Assembly (NCBI GenBank): GCA_965223415.1
Contig: OZ245002.1
Coordinates: 1,280,001 to 1,344,000, forward strand
Length of the DNA: 64,000 bases
Direction: 5' to 3'
Source of the DNA: Myxococcota bacterium
GTDB lineage: Bacteria > Myxococcota_A > UBA9160 > UBA6930
How positions within the stretch are numbered: position 1 is the first letter of the stretch; every line of letters begins with the position of its first letter. Positions 4,222 through 42,654 of this stretch are shown one piece after another. The notes under the pieces were generated by a model. It was not told the origin of the DNA. It saw only the letters and a program-made list of their open reading frames with translations, and did not search any database. The translations under genes and the position numbers were made by a program.

Positions 4222-5232
4222 TCAGCCCGCCTTCACGAACTTCGCGACCACCCGCGCGAGCTCGTCGCCCCGGCCCTCCTGCAGGAAATGGCCGCCTCCC
4301 CGGATCGTCACGTGCTCCTGGCCGCTGGCGCCGGGGATGCGCGCGCGCAGAATCGCGTCGGCGCCACGGGTGACCGGGTCGTTGTCGCTGAACGCACAGA
4401 GGAGAGGCTTCTCCCACTTCGAGAGCACCTCCCAGGCCGCGCGGTTGGCCGGGATCGAAGGATCGTCCGGGAGGGTCGGCACCTGACTCGGCATGGCCCG
4501 CGGCCCCATCTTGAAGCTCGGGTCCGGGAAGGGTGCGTCGTAGGCGGCGATCTCACCGGGCGAGAGCTGGCGGTCGCCGCCGGCGCCCGCCATGACCATG
4601 GCGATCGGGAGGTCCTCGGTCTCCCAGCACCACTTCTGCCAGTGGCCGAAGGTGAGCTCGGGCCGCTCCGGGTCAGGGTTCGAGATGGCCGCCATCATCT
4701 CGGGCATGGTGGGCGTCGGTGCGTCGCTACGGAAGGCGTGATAGGCGTCGATCCGCGCCTGGGGGATGTCCTGGGGAAGCGGCAGGCCCGTGTTGGCCAC
4801 GACGACCCGATCGAAGCGCTCCGGGTTCTCGGCGACCATCCGCAGGCCGATGAGCCCGCCCCAATCCTGGCCGACGAAGGTGAGGCCGCGCAGGTCGTTC
4901 CGGACCAGCCAGGCGGTGAGCCAATCGACCTGACGCTGGTAGCTGTAGTCCTCGCGAGCCGCCGGCTTGTCCGAGCGGCCGAAGCCGACCAGGTCCGGCG
5001 CCACGACCCGCAGGCCGGCGCCGACCAGCACCGGGATCATGTGGCGGTAGAGGTAGCTCCAGGACGGCTGCCCGTGCATGCACAAGACGGTCGGGGCGCC
5101 GGCGGGGCCCTCGTCCACGTGGTGGATCCGGAGGGAGCCGCCCTCACCGTCGGGGACGTCGGTGTAGCGGGGGGCAAAGGGGTAGCCGGGGAGATCGGCG
5201 AAGCGTTCGTCGGGAGTGCGGAGGATCTTCAC
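4222..5232 (-). CDS. Haloalkane dehalogenase (alpha/beta hydrolase)
   Basis: LRTPDERF, HGQPSWSYLYR, PDLVGFGRSDKP, GQDWGG nucleophile elbow, GHFLQE. Confidence 0.92.
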   Translation of the reverse strand: MKILRTPDERFADLPGYPFAPRYTDVPDGEGGSLRIHHVDEGPAGAPTVLCMHGQPSWSYLYRHMIPVLVGAGLRVVAPDLVGFGRSDKPAAREDYSYQRQVDWLTAWLVRNDLRGLTFVGQDWGGLIGLRMVAENPERFDRVVVANTGLPLPQDIPQARIDAYHAFRSDAPTPTMPEMMAAISNPDPERPELTFGHWQKWCWETEDLPIAMVMAGAGGDRQLSPGEIAAYDAPFPDPSFKMGPRAMPSQVPTLPDDPSIPANRAAWEVLSKWEKPLLCAFSDNDPVTRGADAILRARIPGASGQEHVTIRGGGHFLQEGRGDELARVVAKFVKAG

Positions 5233-5266
5233 GCGCGGGATGTTACTTCGCGTCGGGGTCGCGCGC

Positions 5267-6730
5267 TCAGGTGGTTGCGTCCACCCGCTCGAGAAGCTCG
5301 GCGTACTTCAGCAGGTGGTCGACCCCGAGGAAGCGCTCCCGGACACGCTCCCTCGCGGCGGCTCCCATGGCCTCCATCCGCTCCGGCTCACACAGGAGCG
5401 TGCAGAGGGTATCGGCAAAGGCGTCGGAATCGGTCGGGTCCTTCACCAGCAGCCCGTTCACGCCGTCATCGATCTGGTCCTGGATCCCGCCGACGGCACT
5501 GGCCACCACCGGCTTGCCCTTCCACATCGCCTCGGTGACGGTGAGCCCGAAGCCCTCCTTCAGGCTCTTCTGGACGACCACGGCGGCATGGGATTGGAGC
5601 GCGTTGACGATCGCCGCGTTCTCCTGGATGTCGTGCACGGGAAGGCTCGCCAGGTGGACGCGGTTGCGGACGGCGTGGGGCAGGGAGCGCCAACCTTCCA
5701 CCACCCGATCGAACACCTGGGCGCCCTCCGGATCGTCGGCGACGGCGGAGACGTTCGGTCCCGCCAGCACGAGCTCGGGCTGCGCGGGGCACTTGCTGTC
5801 GTAGAGCCGCGCGAAGCCCTCCATCACACCGGCCATGTCCTTCAGCGGATCCCAACGGGAGACCTGCACCACGAGCGGCGTCTCCCCGGCGGGGGGGCGG
5901 CCGAGCCGCACGATGTCGGCGCGTCGCTCGACCCGGCCGGGCGTCCCGTCGTCGCGCACGAAGCCGTGATCGGCGTTCGCGGGCGCAGGCCCCTCCACCA
6001 GGCCCGTGTGGACCAGGATCGTCCGGATCGCCGTCTCCGCGAGCTCCTGGTTCTTGGCGGAGAAGGCGTCGATGCTCGGCGTGATGATGGTCGACTTGCC
6101 GTGATCGCAGATGGCGGGCACGTAGCTCTCGCGCGAGAACACGTAGTGCGGAATGGCGTCCAGGTAGGGCCGCAAGAACTCCCACCCCTGGTCCGCCTCC
6201 TCGCTCGGCCCGTCGAGGCCGATGTGGCAGCGCCAGACGACCCGCGCTCCGGCCTGGATCAGGCTGGCGGCGAGCCCGGCGGTCTGCGGATCGTGGAGGA
6301 TGACGATGTCCTTCGGCCGGACCACCGAGGCCAGCTCGAGGGCATTGTCCCGGAGGGTCGCCTCGTAGATATCGCGCGCGCTCTCGTCGAGGGGGCTGCC
6401 ATCGCCTGCCGAACCGTGGAGCGAGTGATGCAGCCGCTTCGTCACCCGGAAGAACGCCTCGTTTCCGGTGATCACCACCCAGCGGCTGTCGATGCCGACA
6501 CTCCGGGTGTAGCCGAGCAGGGATTGCAGCATCTCGGCGACGCCGCCCCCCACAGCGGTGGAGTTCACGTTCCAGACCACGCGCTTGGAGAGCCGCTCGC
6601 GCGCCCGCCCGGCGGCCTCGAGCGCGGCGCGGAAGTCCTTCTCCGGGATCACCTTCTGGAATCGCTCGAGCGGCTGGATCCCGACTCTCACCTCGTGGAT
6701 CTGCGTCGCCACGCCTGCCTCCATCCCCAT
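5267..6730 (-). CDS. treT: GT4 glycosyltransferase, TreT-like trehalose synthase
   Basis: NSTAVGGGVAEML, HDPQ, WRCHI, QVSRWDPLKD, QKSLKEGFGLTVTEAMWKG. Start is ATG 6730 (TACTCT 7 nt upstream) or GTG 6712 (GGAGG RBS). Confidence 0.8.
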   Translation of the reverse strand: MGMEAGVATQIHEVRVGIQPLERFQKVIPEKDFRAALEAAGRARERLSKRVVWNVNSTAVGGGVAEMLQSLLGYTRSVGIDSRWVVITGNEAFFRVTKRLHHSLHGSAGDGSPLDESARDIYEATLRDNALELASVVRPKDIVILHDPQTAGLAASLIQAGARVVWRCHIGLDGPSEEADQGWEFLRPYLDAIPHYVFSRESYVPAICDHGKSTIITPSIDAFSAKNQELAETAIRTILVHTGLVEGPAPANADHGFVRDDGTPGRVERRADIVRLGRPPAGETPLVVQVSRWDPLKDMAGVMEGFARLYDSKCPAQPELVLAGPNVSAVADDPEGAQVFDRVVEGWRSLPHAVRNRVHLASLPVHDIQENAAIVNALQSHAAVVVQKSLKEGFGLTVTEAMWKGKPVVASAVGGIQDQIDDGVNGLLVKDPTDSDAFADTLCTLLCEPERMEAMGAAARERVRERFLGVDHLLKYAELLERVDATT

Positions 6731-19518: not shown

Positions 19519-20940
19519 TCAGCCCGCGGCCAGGCCCGCCGCCTTCCGCAGCTCCGCGAAGGAGTGCTCCGTCGCCCGGACCATATCGTGGAGGTCGGGC
19601 AGCTGGTCCCAATCGGCAGAGAAGCCCCAGCTGAGCACGCCGTCGTAGCTGAAGAGCGCGATGCCGAGGCCCATGGCGCCCATCAGCGGCACGTGGGGGT
19701 GGATCTCCAGGAGCGCCGCCTCCATCAGGAAGAGGGGCACGCGGGGGCCGGGGACGTTGGTCACCACCAGGTTGAAAGGCGTGCCGAGGACGGCGAGGCG
19801 CGCGCCTAGCGAGAGCAGGCCCGAGCCGGTCCACTCGGTAGCCTGGGTCAGGATCTCGGCGCCCTGGGCACGCTTCGACTTCTTCATCTCGTCGGTGGCG
19901 CGGCAGACCGCCTCCAGGCGCGCGAGGGGATCGGGCTCGTCGATCGGCAGGTCGAGGTTCCAGGCGGACACCCGGTTGCCGAGATCCCCCCGCTCGTCGT
20001 CGCTGCGAACGCTCACCGGAGCCATCACGCGAAGGCACAGACCGTTCACCGGCAGGCCCCGATCGTGGCTGAGAAAACGGCGCACGGCGCCGGCGGTTAC
20101 GGCCAGCACCACGTCGTTGACGGTTCCCCCTACGGCCCGACGCACCTCCTTGACCTCCGAAAGCTGCGTGGGCGTCCAGTCGAGGCGCCGGTGGGGACCG
20201 ATGGGCTCGTTGAACGGCAGGGCCTGGGCGCCGCTCATGTCTCGGAGCATCTCGCCCAGGGCGCCCAGGCGCTCCTGGAGCTGGTGGCGGGCATCGTCCT
20301 CGTCCCGCAGCACCCGCCCGAGCTCCGAGGCGAGCCGCGCCGGCGCCGAGACCACGCGGGCCACTTCACCGGCCGCGAGGGCCACGGCGCCGGGCTGCGC
20401 CCGCGGCTGCCAGCGGCGGATCGGATCCGGCTTCTCCTGGGGCTCGCTCGTGAGCAGTGCCGAGATCAGCTCGGAGCCGGAGACGCCGTCCACCATGCAG
20501 TGGTGCACCTTCGAGTGCACGGCGATGCGATCGCCCTCGAGCCCCTCGATCACCCACAGCTCCCAGAGGGGCTTCTCCCGGTCCAGACGCTGGGAGAAGA
20601 TCCGGCCGACCATGCGCTTCAGCTGGCGCTCGTTGCCCGGGTGGGGGAGCCGGGAGTGGCGCACGTGGTAGCGGATGTTGAAGGTCGGATCGTCCACCCA
20701 CACCGGATGGCCCTCGATGGGGGTGCGGGCCAGCCGCTGCCGGTAGCGCGGGATGCGGTCGAGGCGGGAGAGCACGTACTCCTGGATGCGCTCGATGTCG
20801 AGGGCGCCGTCGTCCAGGCGCAGCGGCCGGGCATCGTGGATCTGTGTCGAGGCCACGTGCATGGCGCACTCGGGCTGGGCGTCCTCGTAGACGAGGAAGG
20901 AGTTGTCGAGCTGGGTGAGCCGATCGTAGGACTGGGCCAT
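19519..20940 (-). CDS. Wax ester synthase/diacylglycerol acyltransferase (WS/DGAT)
   Basis: HHCMVDG catalytic motif, PLWELW, TVNDVVLA, NVPGP. Confidence 0.93.
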   Translation of the reverse strand: MAQSYDRLTQLDNSFLVYEDAQPECAMHVASTQIHDARPLRLDDGALDIERIQEYVLSRLDRIPRYRQRLARTPIEGHPVWVDDPTFNIRYHVRHSRLPHPGNERQLKRMVGRIFSQRLDREKPLWELWVIEGLEGDRIAVHSKVHHCMVDGVSGSELISALLTSEPQEKPDPIRRWQPRAQPGAVALAAGEVARVVSAPARLASELGRVLRDEDDARHQLQERLGALGEMLRDMSGAQALPFNEPIGPHRRLDWTPTQLSEVKEVRRAVGGTVNDVVLAVTAGAVRRFLSHDRGLPVNGLCLRVMAPVSVRSDDERGDLGNRVSAWNLDLPIDEPDPLARLEAVCRATDEMKKSKRAQGAEILTQATEWTGSGLLSLGARLAVLGTPFNLVVTNVPGPRVPLFLMEAALLEIHPHVPLMGAMGLGIALFSYDGVLSWGFSADWDQLPDLHDMVRATEHSFAELRKAAGLAAG

Positions 20941-20955
20941 GATTCTCCGCCTTCC

Positions 20956-22359
20956 TCAGAGCTTGCGCAGGATCTCGAACTCCCGCTCCACGTCGCCGAC
21001 GAACTCGTGGAGATCCGACAGGGCGTCCCAGTCCGCGTTGAAGCCCCAGTGCAGGACGCCGTCGTAGCTGAGCAGGGCCGTCCCCAGCGCCTGGTTCTCG
21101 AATAGCGGCACCAGCGGATACGACTCGAGCATCTTCGCACCGTTCAGGAAGACCGGGAACTGGGGCCCCGGGACGTTCGTGACCACCATGTTGTAGGAGC
21201 GTTGGGAAGCAGCGAGCCGGCTCATGCCCGTGAGCAGCGTGGTCGAGGTCCAGTCGCTGAGCTCCTCGAGCACCTGGGTGCCCTGGGCCTGGCCGGACTG
21301 CTTCAGCTCGCGGGTCTCCTCGATCACGCGCTGGACGCGGCGCTGGGGATCGTTCTCGTCCACGGGAAGCCGCGTCACCAGCATCGAGACGCGGTTGCCG
21401 AGAGTGCCGCGCTGGTCCTCGGTGCGCGTGCTGACCGGGACGAACACGCGGAAGTCGATGTCGTCCGTGTCGACACCGTGGTGCGTCAGGAAGCGGCGCA
21501 CGGCACCGCTCACGCAGGCGAGCACGACGTCGTTGATCGTGCCTCCGAACTTCGACTTCACCTCCTTCACCACGCCGAGATCAAAGCGGGTCCAGTCGAA
21601 GCGTCGGTAGGGACCGATCGGCACGTTGAGGGGCGTCTCGGAGGCCGGCGAGAAGGCCTTGCCGAGGCCCTCGACGAAGCCCGTCGCCGCGTGGGACGCG
21701 GATTCGAAGCTCTCCTCCGGGCGCCGCAGCGATTGCGCCAGGTCGGACATCACGCGGCCGGGCAGCCCGATCCGGCGCCGCAGCTCGCCGCCCAGGAGCT
21801 CGAGGGCGCCCGGCGCCGTGCGGGGACGCCAGGGAGCGTGGCTCTCGGTCGGGCGATAGTCGCGATCCGGCCCCATGAACGCCGCCAACAGCTCGACGCC
21901 GGAGATCCCGTCGATCAGGCAGTGGTGCACCTTCGAGATCACTGCGAAGCGGCCGTCCTCGAGCCCTTCGACGAACCACAGCTCCCACATCGGCTTCGAG
22001 CGGTCGAGCTTCTGGGACATGATCCGGCCGGCCAGGCGCTTCAGCCTGCGCTCGTCGCCGGGAATCGGAAGCGCCGTGTGCCGCAGGTGGTAGAGAAGGT
22101 TGAATCGATCGTCGTCGATCCACACCGGATGACCCGTGATGGGGACCTGGGAGAGCTTCTGCCGGAAACGCGGTGCGCGGCGAAGGCCGGCCTCGGCCAA
22201 CGCCAGGATCTGGTCGAAGTCGATCCCGCCGCCGGGCGTGGCCAGGGGCCCCGGATCGAAGATCGCGACGGTCCCCACGTGCATGTGCACGCCCTCGGAT
22301 TCAAGCTCGAGGAAGGTCGTGTCGAGGGCGGTCAGCCGGTCGTAGTGCGTGTAGGGCAC
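20956..22359 (-). CDS. Wax ester synthase/diacylglycerol acyltransferase (WS/DGAT), tandem paralog
   Basis: HHCLIDG, PMWELW, TINDVVLA, NVPGP; GTG start with GAGGAGG RBS. Confidence 0.93.
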   Translation of the reverse strand: MPYTHYDRLTALDTTFLELESEGVHMHVGTVAIFDPGPLATPGGGIDFDQILALAEAGLRRAPRFRQKLSQVPITGHPVWIDDDRFNLLYHLRHTALPIPGDERRLKRLAGRIMSQKLDRSKPMWELWFVEGLEDGRFAVISKVHHCLIDGISGVELLAAFMGPDRDYRPTESHAPWRPRTAPGALELLGGELRRRIGLPGRVMSDLAQSLRRPEESFESASHAATGFVEGLGKAFSPASETPLNVPIGPYRRFDWTRFDLGVVKEVKSKFGGTINDVVLACVSGAVRRFLTHHGVDTDDIDFRVFVPVSTRTEDQRGTLGNRVSMLVTRLPVDENDPQRRVQRVIEETRELKQSGQAQGTQVLEELSDWTSTTLLTGMSRLAASQRSYNMVVTNVPGPQFPVFLNGAKMLESYPLVPLFENQALGTALLSYDGVLHWGFNADWDALSDLHEFVGDVEREFEILRKL

Positions 22360-22387
22360 GGACGCCTCCTCTTCCCCGGAGACATTG

Positions 22388-22403
22388 TGCAGGTTTCGCG
22401 CCC
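22388..22403 (-). promoter_or_regulatory. Candidate sigma54 promoter for the WS/DGAT pair
   Basis: GGGCGCG-AAAC-CTGCA gives GG-N10-GC, positioned just upstream of the RBS. Confidence 0.4.
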
Positions 22404-22528
22404 AGCCCGCCCCCGCTGGCTGGCGCCCTCGGAGCCGCCCGGGCGCCCCCACTGCACCCTTTCGCCTCGAAGCGGGGCGTCGCGCCTCGTCTCCTTCCGG
22501 GGCGCCCCCCGGCATCGCCCTCGGGAGC

Positions 22529-22543
22529 TGGCACGGAACCTGC
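22529..22543 (+). promoter_or_regulatory. Candidate sigma54 promoter for the cytochrome c gene
   Basis: TGGCACG-GAAC-CTGC, near the TGGCACG-N4-TTGC consensus with exact GG-N10-GC spacing. Confidence 0.55.
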
Positions 22544-22571
22544 GTCTTGGGGAGGCCGAGGAGGATCCGCC

Positions 22572-22979
22572 GTGAAGCCCTGCGCACCGTTGATCGTCGG
22601 CCTGGCCCTCGGTCTCGCCCTGTCCGGAGCCGCCGCTGCCGACGAGGGTGAGCGCACCGGCGAGCTCGAGTTCACGAAGTACTGCAGCTCCTGCCACGGA
22701 GCCAACGCCACCGGCGTCGGCCCGGTCGCGGAGGTGCTCGACCCGAAGCCCGCAGATCTCACCCGCATCGCTGCACGTCGCGAGGGCGTGTTCCCGGAGG
22801 TCGAGATCCAGCGGATCATCGACGGACGCGATCCGGTGCGCGCTCACGGTGCCAAGCAGATGCCCGTCTGGGGAGAGATCTTCCGCGGCGAGCTCGGCCC
22901 GGGCCCGGCAGGCGAGTCCGCCGCCCGCGGCAAGGCGTGGCTGATCATCCGTTACCTGAAGACGATCCAGGTGGAGTAG
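22572..22979 (+). CDS. Periplasmic monoheme cytochrome c
   Basis: Signal peptide, CSSCH heme motif, PADLT, MPVWG axial Met; GAGGAGG RBS. Confidence 0.9.
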   Translation: MKPCAPLIVGLALGLALSGAAAADEGERTGELEFTKYCSSCHGANATGVGPVAEVLDPKPADLTRIAARREGVFPEVEIQRIIDGRDPVRAHGAKQMPVWGEIFRGELGPGPAGESAARGKAWLIIRYLKTIQVE

Positions 22980-39915: not shown

Positions 39916-41151
39916 TCATCGCCGGGGCCGCGTCCCCCGCCGCCTCCTCCGCGCCGCCAGCTCGAGCCGCAAGCTCTTCGCGATGAACCGGGGCAGCCCG
40001 AGGGGGTTCCGGCGGAGCTTGCGGAGGATCAACCGGCGCATGTGGGGCATCGCGTCGTAGCTTCCCTCGCGCTGGCCGTGGCCGATGTGCATGGCGAGGG
40101 CGGGCACGTCGACGACGTCCATGGGAAGCTCCAGGTGGAGCGTCTCGGTCTTCGGCAGCAGACAGGTCTGTTCGTCGCAGGCCTGGTAGCGGACGTTCAC
40201 CTCGAGGCGCGCGGTCTCCGCGTCGAGGGGACGGAGCTCGCTGGCGAGCTCACCGGTCGGGTAGAAGGGCACGGCAATGTCCACGGTGCCGCTCCAGACT
40301 TGGAGCTCCAGGTCCATGCTCGCAAGGCACAGGGGCTCGGTGGGCGGAAGGATCGGGTCGAGCACCGTCAGGCCCGGGGGTCCCTCGACCTGCACCGTCG
40401 TCGGCACCATGCCCTCGGGCACGGGCTCGCCGTAGAGGTGGAGCCCCGGGCCCAGCTCGAAGCGGACGACGAGCTTGCGCATGATGCCCTGGCGGATGCT
40501 GCCGTCCCCGCCGTGGACCGCTGCGGTGACGTGGATCTGGTCGTCGCCAGCTTCCGCTCGGGGCGCCGCATCGGACAGCTCGATCCGGCCCAGGGCGGCG
40601 TCGATCAGCGTCTCCGGGCTGTCCCGCTTCTTGTAGGTGTCGTGGAAGAACTTCGCGACGACGATGCCGTCCTCGTCGGTGACGAAGACGCCGGGGAAGG
40701 CCACGCCGTACAAGAAGGCGTCGTCCTCGCCGACGGAGGTGTTCAGCACGCCGTAGCGCCGGATCACCTCCGACTCGACGTCCGATAGCAGCGGGAAGGA
40801 GACGTCCCGCTTCAGGGCAAACTCCCGCAGTGCGGGCTGGTCGTCGTAGGAGATGGCGTAGAGCTTGATGCCGGCCGCCTCGAACTTCTCGCGGGCGTCG
40901 CGCAGCTCGCCGAGCTGCGTCCAGCAGGGGGGTCACCAGACGGCGGAGCGGTAGAAGACCAGGGCGGCCTTCGAGCGGCCGCGGTCGGCGTGGAAGTCGA
41001 TCTCGCGACCGAAGGCGTCGGGAAGGCTGAAGTCCGGCAGCCGTTCGCCCACCTCGGGGCCCGTGACGTGGCCCTCGGGCAGACCGCTTCGGGCGGGGTG
41101 GCCCAGCGGTGCCGGTGCGTCGAAGCCGTGCTCGTCGCGCTCGACCGTCAT
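39916..41151 (-). CDS. Predicted selenoprotein (Sec73, UxxC): AhpC/TSA thioredoxin-fold domain fused to a DsbD N-terminal-like domain, 411 aa
   Basis: An in-frame TGA at 40935-40933 joins two ORF-track pieces. The read-through is GPEVGERLPDFSLPD...LVFYRSAVW-U-PPCWTQLGEL...GIKLYAISYD...FPLLSD...PGVFVTDEDG, then YQACDEQTCLLP. A SECIS-like hairpin follows the UGA. Confidence 0.88.
40901..40919 (-). promoter_or_regulatory. Candidate bacterial SECIS element
   Basis: On the mRNA: UGA, 13 nt, then CGCAGCUC-GGC-GAGCUGCG. This is a perfect 8-bp stem whose G-starting apical loop follows the UGA after a 21-nt spacer. Confidence 0.7.
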
Positions 41152-41924
41152 ACAGGAGATCTCTCGTGTCGGCGGGTGATCAGCTTGCGAGGGTGGCGAC
41201 CGTCCACGTAGCCGACGAAAGTGCCCGCGACGAGCTCGTAGCCCACCAGGGCCTGGATGCGCTCCGAGTAGCGGGCCGCGACGTCCGGCGGCACGGCCAG
41301 GAACTGGTTCTCGAGCTGGCGCAGCCACGGCTGGCAGTACTGGACCGTCAGCCCCAGGCGCTTGCCGCTCGAGCGGTTCGCGCCCGAGCGGTGATACAGC
41401 GTGCCCGGGAAGACCGCGACGCTCCCGGACGCCATCAACAGGGGGACGCCCATGCGTTCCATCTCCGCCTGGGGCGGGGCCGGCGTCTCCCAGAGATGAC
41501 TCCCGGGAATGACGTCCGTTGCGCCGTTCTCGGCGGTGAAGTCATCGAGGGCCCAGATGGTCGAAACCCCCTGCACCGGACGGGGCGGCGGGGGCGCGCC
41601 GAGCGCGTCGTCCTGGTGGAAGCCCTGGGGCGTCTCGCCTGGGTGCAGGTTCACCACCAGGGCCGCCGAGAGCAGGAAGCTCTCGCGGAGGAAGCGGCCG
41701 ACGAGCTCGAGGACGGCCGCGTGCTCGACCAGCGGCGCGACCGCGGGCACCTTGGCCAACAAACTGTAGACGCGCTCGGTCCTGAAACCCTCGAAGTCGT
41801 TGCGCCCCATCAGCTCGGACCGGAGGTACGGCCCGAGCTGCTCGCGGAGCGCCGCGACCTGGGAGGGGTCGATGGCGGAGGGGAGGACGACGTAGCCGTC
41901 GGTTTCGAGACTCGGAGAGGCCAC
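41148..41924 (-). CDS. Phytanoyl-CoA dioxygenase (PhyH) family protein
   Basis: DGYVVL, QGFHQDD (HxD), WALDDFTAENGATDVIPGSH, LYHRSGAN, WLRQLEN; ATGA overlap with the selenoprotein. Confidence 0.9.
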   Translation of the reverse strand: MASPSLETDGYVVLPSAIDPSQVAALREQLGPYLRSELMGRNDFEGFRTERVYSLLAKVPAVAPLVEHAAVLELVGRFLRESFLLSAALVVNLHPGETPQGFHQDDALGAPPPPRPVQGVSTIWALDDFTAENGATDVIPGSHLWETPAPPQAEMERMGVPLLMASGSVAVFPGTLYHRSGANRSSGKRLGLTVQYCQPWLRQLENQFLAVPPDVAARYSERIQALVGYELVAGTFVGYVDGRHPRKLITRRHERSPV

Positions 41925-41928
41925 ACCT

Positions 41929-41940
41929 CTACGGTATCCT
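41929..41940. promoter_or_regulatory. Bidirectional promoter: overlapping -10 boxes driving two leaderless genes
   Basis: CTACGGTATCCT contains TATCCT (+) 6 nt before ATG 41947 and TACCGT (-) 6 nt before GTG 41924. Confidence 0.6.
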
Positions 41941-41946
41941 GCCGCC

Positions 41947-42654
41947 ATGGCCGACGCCCCCACCCTCTACACCGCGCGAGCCTGCAACTTCTGCCACCGC
42001 AGCCGGATCGCCTTCGCCGCCAAGGGTGTCGAGCCGGAGCTCGTCGAGATCGATCTCGTGAAGCGCCCCTCCTGGTTCCGCGACAAGGCCTCGGGCGGCA
42101 GCGTGCCGCTGCTCGAGTGCAAGGACGGCGCCTTCCACGGCTCGGCCATCATCAACGAGTACGTCGAGGAGCGCTGGCCCGAGCCGACGCTGCTGCCGGG
42201 CTCGCCGGCGGAGCGCGCCGAGGCGCGCATGTGGATCCACTGGTGGAACCGCGCGCCGACGCCCCGCTACGAAGAGCTGCTGATGAACGTGCGGCCGAAG
42301 CGGGAAGACGAGCTGCGCGAGCGGCTGCTCTCGGCTCTCGTGGAGTGCGAGGAACGGCTGGTGGCGCGGGGCTACGGCGGCGGCTACTGGCATGGTGCGT
42401 CGCTGGGCCTGGTCGACGCCAGCGCCGCGCCGGTCTTCGATCGCTTCGTCGGGCTGCGGCACTTCCACGACGTTGACGTTCCGGAGGAGCTGGGCCGCGT
42501 GCGCGCCTGGCGGGACCACCTGCTCGCGGACGAAGTCGTGCAGCGGTGCTCGCCGGGAGAGGACGCACTGCTCGAGGTCTTCTCGGGCTACCGGGACGTC
42601 CTGGCCAAGGCGGCGGAGGCGGGCATCGAGGTCCCGGTGTCGGGCGGTGACTGA
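41947..42654 (+). CDS. Glutathione S-transferase family protein with CxxC (omega/SspA-like)
   Basis: ACNFCHRSRIA, GSVPLL, SAIINEYVEE, LVDA N-capping box. Confidence 0.85.
   Translation: MADAPTLYTARACNFCHRSRIAFAAKGVEPELVEIDLVKRPSWFRDKASGGSVPLLECKDGAFHGSAIINEYVEERWPEPTLLPGSPAERAEARMWIHWWNRAPTPRYEELLMNVRPKREDELRERLLSALVECEERLVARGYGGGYWHGASLGLVDASAAPVFDRFVGLRHFHDVDVPEELGRVRAWRDHLLADEVVQRCSPGEDALLEVFSGYRDVLAKAAEAGIEVPVSGGD

Follow-up and report, generated by a model that had tools for sequence, protein, structure and literature searches.

The 64,000-nucleotide stretch of DNA analysed here, referred to as the window (contig OZ245002.1 of a Myxococcota bacterium, positions 1,280,001 to 1,344,000 of the forward strand), carries on its minus strand two adjacent open reading frames (ORFs) that are best explained as one gene for a selenoprotein of 411 residues (39916..41151, 411 codons and a terminal TGA stop). 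Its selenocysteine (Sec, U) would be encoded by codon 73, an in-frame TGA at the first position of a U-P-P-C motif. The predicted protein consists of a thioredoxin-fold AhpC/TSA, or peroxiredoxin-like (Prx-like), domain, a second domain resembling the alpha domains of DsbD and ScsB, and a basic carboxy-terminal tail. We put the probability of this explanation, together with the proposals made below for the recoding of the TGA and for an electron relay within the protein, at roughly 0.88. That the gene encodes Sec in the organism of the window is very probable, judging from the sequence comparisons.

The open frame runs from an ATG at 41151–41149 to a stop TGA at 39918–39916, and its sole interruption is the TGA at 40935–40933. 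When codon 73 is read through, translation yields 411 residues, ...FYRSAVW-U-PPCWTQLGELRDAREKFEAAGIKLYAISYDDQPALREFALKRDVSFPLLSD..., with the motif FYRSAVW-U-PPCWTQLGEL around the presumed Sec. A preliminary description of this DNA had held that the two ORFs share a frame and are parted only by this TGA, which is what the window sequence and its translation give. It had delimited the first ORF as 40933..41328, which is right as to frame and wrong as to start: the GTG from which that ORF begins is inside the upstream gene, and the true start is the ATG at 41151. This start codon (41149..41151, minus strand) overlaps, as ATGA, the TGA that ends the PhyH-like gene upstream. Both flanks of codon 73 look coding, the G+C content at third codon positions being 0.90 for codons 1–72 and 0.94 for codons 74–411. 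The AhpC/TSA domain, earlier described as continuing free of stops over the TGA, is matched by Pfam AhpC-TSA from residue 34 to residue 166, across codon 73 (40654..41052, minus strand; PF00578, E 2.7e-28, 98.8 bits against a cutoff of 26), and contains U73-x-x-C76 and Pro153. Elsewhere in the window, no TGA is flanked in frame by coding-like sequence both before and after it, save two ordinary gene junctions. One of these lies within a tandem pair of wax-ester synthase/diacylglycerol acyltransferase (WS/DGAT) genes (19519–20940 and 20956–22587, both on the minus strand), which are in the same frame with the TGA between them.

Related loci were collected in a scan of one genome per species, which found 129, of which 80 were kept; all counts out of 80 refer to these. 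The tblastn alignments cross the TGA column, from residue 1 to about residue 405, in every one of the 80, and the codon is TGA each time, never TAA or TAG. Protein identity is 56–73% on both sides of the TGA, and the start codon is located exactly 72 codons before it in 72 of the loci. By record label, Pseudomonadota host 49 of the loci (Halieaceae 21 of these) and Myxococcota 19, with seven in unplaced organisms, three in "Spirochaetaceae", one in Bacteroidia and one in Nitrosopumilus; the last five loci belong to metagenome bins and may be mis-binned. Complete genomes and isolates are among the carriers (HTCC2143, HTCC2080 and Luminiphilus sp. nBUS_07); the closest relatives of the window protein in a FastTree phylogeny are Myxococcota bins. 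Two loci are irregular. In one (L014:4001-6175) the frame runs on to 725 codons instead of about 408, either because its stop was lost or because it is fused to the gene that follows, and in the other (L070:4001-5229) the gene lies in two frames around residues 57–75, probably because the long-read assembly contains an indel. An error of sequencing or assembly at the TGA of the window, in favour of which nothing specific speaks, can be given next to no weight, as 80 independent assemblies, complete genomes and isolates included, agree on this codon.

The gene is real, and gene callers miscall it systematically in related genomes. The predicted protein available for the window itself, P0002, has 283 residues, in line with the earlier expectation that annotation would split the gene. 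In a collection of 5.8 billion proteins, where P0002 itself is among the matches, not one of the best 120 of 639 is full length, their coverage of the 411-residue protein being 79% or less, and the 20 database relatives that were aligned all start just past the TGA column, at differing codons. A library of 1.84 billion representatives likewise contains truncated pieces, plus a 72-residue amino-terminal piece (P0247) that ends in ...FYRSAVW. Another entry, P0242 (163 residues), apparently spans the TGA column and was rejected; it is out of register just before the column, a frameshift having apparently occurred in the run of C residues that follows the TGA.

Pieces such as P0002 and P0247 are how public gene callers render the locus, and they agree with a reading of the TGA as a true stop, leaving either a pseudogene or a 72-residue peptide and a separate, internally started downstream protein; that the Sec machinery is unseen within the window also favours this reading. 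We consider it very unlikely. A stop would have to be kept as TGA at an active-site residue of a thioredoxin fold in 80 of 80 loci across phyla, with constraint at the protein level on both of its flanks and with Cys at the same column in relatives. No conserved start codon follows the TGA, and in the window 56 codons separate the TGA from the next possible in-frame start, which lies within the domain. When the full read-through protein is modelled with AlphaFold2 from an alignment of 61 sequences, it is predicted as a single unit, with a mean predicted local distance difference test (pLDDT) of 94.3 and a predicted template-modelling score (pTM) of 0.92.

In 25 distant full-length relatives, the TGA column is occupied by Cys in 21, Ser in three and Trp in one. 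The Cys forms among them are 26–44% identical to the window protein, have the same two domains and show W-C-P-Y/F-C at the Sec column, and the UGA is therefore found at the first Cys of a CxxC motif, as had been claimed. A comparison of homologues at this position, looking for Cys or TGA, had been proposed earlier, and with TGA in all 80 related loci and Cys in 21 of the 25 distant proteins its outcome is consistent with a Sec/Cys pair.

Beginning 13 nucleotides past the UGA, a SECIS-like (selenocysteine insertion sequence-like) hairpin is located (40901..40919, minus strand), made up of an 8-bp stem, CGCAGCUC/GAGCUGCG, and a GGC loop, which is GGY in the family. The hairpin is the minimum-energy fold in the window and in five of the seven relatives that were folded. 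Over 78 distinct sequences, 95% of the cells of the stem pair and five pairs are invariant, while the covarying pair is GC in 51 sequences, GU in 20, AU in five and something else in two. In the available text of PMC1088965, SECIS elements are described as stem-loops that closely follow the UGA and have a G within a small apical loop, and the hairpin has this form. At the sequence level, constraint on synonymous sites is stronger evidence for the hairpin than the pairing is. Among 115 conserved degenerate columns in 65 genes, just three have zero codon entropy: the TGA, Thr78 (ACG in 65 of 65), which is a four-fold site, and Glu82 (GAG in 65 of 65). Gln79 comes next in codon constraint, and for Leu80 and for Arg84 two of the six possible codons occur. 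From this conservation, UGA-73 would be read as Sec by SelB and tRNA-Sec, recruited by the hairpin in the usual bacterial arrangement. The conserved TGA, the Cys in distant relatives and the SECIS-like hairpin together support the 411-residue protein with Sec73 that had been put forward in the preliminary description.

In three of the 80 loci, the selenoprotein gene is preceded on its own strand, at a distance of about 2.2 kb, by selB with tRNA-SeC immediately after it: a Halieaceae bin (L038:3-1772), the complete genome of Luminiphilus sp. nBUS_07 (L066:16-1798) and HTCC2080 (L079:250-2032). The selB of the Halieaceae bin matches TIGR00475 with 260.5 bits against a cutoff of 242.25; a nitroreductase-like ORF and a helix-turn-helix regulator lie between selB/tRNA-SeC and the selenoprotein gene in this locus. 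UGA is reassigned in some bacteria (NCBI tables 4 and 25), and through such a variant code, or through general read-through, the TGA might stand for one of the standard amino acids (Trp, Cys or Gly); for this gene the idea is highly improbable. TGA is a working stop elsewhere, ending the selenoprotein gene itself, its upstream neighbour and many orthologues, and the 64 kb contain a single internal TGA that has coding sequence both before and after it. Moreover, the codon occupies a redox-active Cys column, a conserved hairpin comes after it, and tRNA-SeC and selB adjoin in the three relatives just mentioned.

Several results weigh against a recoded TGA and an electron-relaying protein as proposed here. 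Within the hairpin, one stem pair of the eight covaries, and two fail to form in 11 and 18 of the 78 sequences, respectively. Its folding energy is no better than that of shuffled sequences in a context of 70% G+C (z of +0.62 for 75 nucleotides and −0.60 for 45 nucleotides); the shuffle test is significant in one of the eight sequences folded, and two of the eight fold otherwise. Since the shuffle tests are not significant in seven of eight sequences, the case for the hairpin rests on conservation. No Rfam match was obtained for the whole window at gathering thresholds, nor for 40780–41000 at E values up to 10, a null result that says little because bacterial SECIS elements are poorly covered by Rfam. 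The 64-kb window contains no selA, selB, selC or selD (no tRNA was found, a Pfam scan of 54 ORFs gave none of the proteins, and a separate search gave no SelB-like sequence). There is no conserved operon partner that might hint at a substrate: relatives of the window neighbours are rarely near the gene (PhyH in one, PPK2 in one and GST in two of the 80 loci). Lastly, DsbD-alpha domains are known from the periplasm, and we know of no cytoplasmic precedent.

The amino-terminal domain finds its matches of known structure, by sequence, in BCP, AhpE and ResA. Foldseek likewise retrieves BCP/PrxQ, AhpE and ResA structures, with TM-scores of 0.86–0.88 relative to the targets Bcp4 and AhpE. True Sec-peroxiredoxins, BCP/PrxQ and AhpE thus share its fold and are its best matches in both sequence and structure, but differ in the active site. 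When the domain is aligned with A. pernix BCP (2cx3), U73 takes the place of the Ser/Thr in the peroxiredoxin T/SxxC motif and C76 that of the peroxidatic Cys; S69 and P153 stand at the peroxiredoxin Pro and Arg, respectively. In peroxiredoxins the Pro, Thr and Arg are absolutely conserved, according to the legend of Fig. 4 in PMC3322552, and the motif of Sec-peroxiredoxins is given as PxxxTxxU in the accessible part of PMC13188914. Three of the four residues that define a peroxiredoxin (PxxxTxxC/U plus Arg) are absent from the window protein, which keeps only the Cys (C76) and has its Sec three residues upstream of the peroxidatic position. With an exposed Sec at the first position of W-U-P-P-C and a Pro in place of the peroxiredoxin Arg, the domain is built like a thiol:disulfide oxidoreductase of the TlpA/ResA/CcmG type and not like a peroxidase.

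A true selenoprotein could still be a genuine peroxiredoxin, in which C76 or U73 attacks peroxides and the DsbD-like domain merely recycles the enzyme. The nearest solved structures by sequence and fold are indeed peroxiredoxins (BCP/PrxQ 2cx3, AhpE and Bcp4), C76 aligns with the peroxidatic Cys of 2cx3, and Sec is highly reactive towards peroxides, as in glutathione peroxidase. We nevertheless regard a peroxidase as unlikely: the peroxiredoxin Pro, Thr and Arg are replaced by S69, U73 and P153, the Sec occupies the first position of a thioredoxin-type motif instead of the peroxidatic position, and ResA and TlpA-type oxidoreductases match almost equally well. PrxL, which also lacks the Pro, Thr and Arg, showed no peroxidase activity in the experiments described in the available portion of PMC3322552.

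The assignment to a family of thiol:disulfide oxidoreductases can be made from features shared with proteins already catalogued. Prx-like selenoproteins with a UxxC motif have been predicted since the first surveys of prokaryotic selenoproteomes and are abundant in marine metagenomes. Like the window protein, they have an AhpC/TSA domain, a UxxC motif, Cys homologues and a small hairpin with G in its loop after the UGA, and they form a marine family that includes deltaproteobacterial and Myxococcota hosts. As far as the consulted text of PMC1088965 goes, a Prx-like selenoprotein class with a thioredoxin-like UXXC motif was described there and named 'Prx-like protein' in the Sargasso Sea set. 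'Prx-like 1' (pfam00578, UxxC) counts 225 sequences in the Global Ocean Sampling (GOS) data (PMC2398784, Table 2), and Table 1 of a 2026 review (PMC13188914) lists the class as 'predicted with high confidence'; the UxxC thioredoxin-fold proteins to which the preliminary description had appealed as a known selenoprotein class are, in the form of this Prx-like group, already in the literature. Because every family feature that can be examined is present, the window protein is filed with them, and on sequence grounds it is a member of the known Prx-like UxxC class of thiol:disulfide oxidoreductase selenoproteins. No NCBIfam model reaches its cutoff on the protein, the scores being 40.6 bits against 120 for SelL_rel_redox, 18.7 against 300 for WAxxUGC_long and 18.0 against 270 for peroxi_PrxU.

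The second domain (residues 225–340, 40132..40479, minus strand) is a predicted beta-sandwich of the DsbD-alpha/ScsB-alpha type, matched by Pfam DsbD_N (PF11412, E 1.7e-8, 34.9 bits against a cutoff of 25). It contains a C-x4-C pair, Cys325 (40177–40179, minus strand) and Cys330 (40162–40164, minus strand), both invariant in 61 sequences comprising Sec and Cys forms together. Foldseek searches with the full-length model matched the amino-terminal domain only, and residues 195–411 were for this reason modelled separately (pLDDT 88). The best match of this second model is the amino-terminal domain of ScsB (6c29_A, E 1.1e-5), with a TM-score of 0.39 relative to the target, which is a larger domain. 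DsbD-alpha chains follow (1l6p, 3pfu, 1vrs, 1jpe and 1z5y), with target TM-scores of 0.59–0.66, and the top matches have E values between 1e-5 and 8e-5. Complexes of DsbD-alpha with DsbD-gamma (1vrs), CcmG (1z5y) and DsbC (1jzd) are among the matches. The fold match alone is not specific, as adaptin-ear beta-sandwiches score nearly as well. Given the Pfam match and the invariance of C325 and C330, the best reading of the second domain is a DsbD-alpha/ScsB-alpha fold with a predicted redox Cys pair.

The carboxy-terminal extension (residues 345–411, 39919..40119, minus strand) contains an H-x-G-H-G-Q-R-E motif, in which H355, H358, G359, Q360, R361 and E362 are invariant, along with two strands and two basic amphipathic helices. 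The helices (residues 368–381 and 385–406) are predicted at a pLDDT of 83–95, and in the model the tail is an integral, confidently predicted part of the fold. Its last 47 residues include 17 Lys or Arg as against two Asp or Glu, and have the highest hydrophobic moment in the protein. The second domain and the tail were left unmentioned in the preliminary description, and both are additions to it. The Sec protein has no signal-like amino-terminus and no membrane-like segment, the maximal Kyte-Doolittle mean over 19 residues being 1.13. Because signal peptide and membrane segment are both absent, the protein is probably cytoplasmic, although the basic amphipathic tail might conceivably hold it at a membrane surface.

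The Cys-form proteins with AhpC/TSA and DsbD_N domains (P0131, P0132, P0140, P0161 and others) share with the window protein the order of the domains and a Q-A-C-x4-C motif in the second domain, and have Cys where it has Sec. They do not have the HGQRE motif and the basic helical tail, and end near residue 350. An amino-terminal hydrophobic, signal-like segment is present in 18 of the 22 that were examined, unlike in the window protein, and the Cys forms are for this reason probably exported. No name or function is attached to them in the data examined. In a FastTree phylogeny of 73 rows, the Cys forms lie outside the Sec branch: all 49 Sec forms are on one side of a branch with a Shimodaira–Hasegawa-like support of 100, and the Cys forms that lack a signal adjoin it. 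FastTree is a quick method and the tail, exclusive to the Sec forms, helps their branch, so the reading of this tree is limited accordingly: a single origin of the Sec forms is not contradicted by these sequences.

The known systems that most resemble the two joined domains are DsbD-alpha and ScsB-alpha with their partners (DsbD-gamma, CcmG, DsbC, TlpA and PrxL). There too, a beta-sandwich with a redox Cys pair is placed beside a thioredoxin-fold domain of the CxxC type, and DsbD-alpha-type domains pass electrons to or from thioredoxin-fold partners through mixed disulfides. The Cys spacing in E. coli DsbD-alpha is C-x5-C, compared with C-x4-C in the window protein. In the DsbD and ScsB systems the partners are separate, whereas here they are fused in one polypeptide and the nucleophile of the partner is Sec. 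The window protein also differs in having neither a membrane-embedded DsbD-beta domain nor a signal peptide. It resembles one arm of the DsbD/ScsB membrane electron transporter and is not a member of it. Exported ScsB keeps a Prx-like protein reduced, and that protein has no detectable peroxidase activity, as reported in the part of PMC3322552 that was available.

From the exchange of electrons between DsbD-alpha-type domains and thioredoxin-fold partners, and from the ScsB precedent, a fused relay can be proposed for the window protein. The two domains would exchange electrons through a selenenylsulfide between U73 and either C325 or C330, and the whole would act as a self-contained reductase relay towards some disulfide or sulfenic-acid substrate. 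By analogy with these systems, we think such an internal selenol/thiol relay somewhat better than an even chance.

Judging from published descriptions, the two-domain Sec proteins may be an undescribed subfamily, set apart from the catalogued families. The Prx-like UxxC selenoproteins are described as single-domain proteins in the literature as far as it could be consulted, while the window protein adds the C-x4-C DsbD-alpha-like domain and a tail of 67 residues; GOS reads are short, so that a fusion of this kind would not be visible among them. The 119-family table of PMC13188914 contains no selenoprotein described as AhpC/TSA plus DsbD-alpha, its sole mention of DsbD being for the unrelated TsoB, and the word DsbD is absent from the main text of the GOS paper (PMC2398784) as accessible. 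In the openly readable literature, no AhpC/TSA-DsbD_N selenoprotein was found.

A broader joint reading can be offered tentatively, at somewhat less than even odds. The proteins combining a Sec AhpC/TSA domain, a DsbD-alpha-like domain and the HGQRE tail would then be an undescribed subfamily, a soluble and self-contained version of the relay that connects DsbD/ScsB to thioredoxin-fold proteins in the envelope. The relay would have been moved into the cytoplasm, where a Sec nucleophile meets a DsbD-alpha-like Cys pair, and would have originated once from a Cys ancestor. It would have spread over marine Halieaceae, other Gammaproteobacteria and Myxococcota, and be found next to selB-selC in genomes of the Luminiphilus type. 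If this is true, the protein is a candidate 'anchor' selenoprotein, which would help to keep the Sec trait in aerobic marine bacteria.

Directly upstream of the selenoprotein gene in the window is a PhyH-like dioxygenase gene (41148..41963, minus strand; Pfam PhyH, E 1.4e-28), which belongs to the context and not to the system. Its translational coupling to the selenoprotein gene through the ATGA overlap is seen in this window only, and a relative of it is near the gene in one of the 80 loci. All-against-all clustering of the flanking ORFs showed no partner in more than 14 of 80 loci. A glutathione S-transferase-like (GST-like) gene (41947–42654, plus strand) is divergent from the PhyH-like gene, with their 5' ends overlapping by 17 bases; its product has an amino-terminal A-C-N-F-C motif. 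GST-like proteins are a listed selenoprotein family, but the one in the window carries Cys.

A second probable selenoprotein gene lies directly downstream and convergent in 13–14 of the 80 loci (Halieaceae/Luminiphilus). It would encode a hydrophobic, membrane-like amino-terminus and, after it, an AhpC/TSA domain whose motif FFRAHW-U-PYC contains an in-frame TGA; this codon was checked in six loci. The gene is located at about 5206–5703 (minus strand) in L034, L036, L044 and L051, at L043:3487-3969 and at L060:2780-3238, with an amino-terminal piece at L079:5650-6141.

Further away in the window, between 22990 and about 25130 (minus strand), is a molybdopterin oxidoreductase gene with Fe4S4, Molybdopterin and Molydop_binding domains. 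Its family includes Sec-containing formate dehydrogenases; the frame in the window has no internal TGA. The mechanically delimited ORF extends about 400 codons upstream of the first domain, overlapping a short-chain dehydrogenase/reductase (SDR) gene on the opposite strand. Generally, the window, of about 70% G+C, is rich in genes for oxygenases and for lipid and xenobiotic metabolism, with two P450s, two TauD and two PhyH proteins, luciferase-like monooxygenases, a Rieske dioxygenase, an acyl-CoA dehydrogenase and enoyl-CoA hydratases.

The gene is a misannotated selenoprotein gene of a known class, with an architecture that published descriptions seem not to have catalogued; the surprise is limited, because UxxC selenoproteins with a thioredoxin fold are what specialists would expect of marine bacteria. 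The whole orthologous group, at least 80 of the 129 loci, is split or shortened in public annotation and claimed by no NCBIfam model. Consequently, the genomes that carry it are scored as having no selenoprotein and as having an odd "redoxin" devoid of an active site, which a family model including the Sec column and the hairpin would mend. The fusion would pair a DsbD-alpha-type domain directly with a thioredoxin-fold partner in one chain, outside the envelope, and, together with the Cys forms, it makes up a natural Sec/Cys pair in which the contribution of selenium to a thiol:disulfide relay could be studied.

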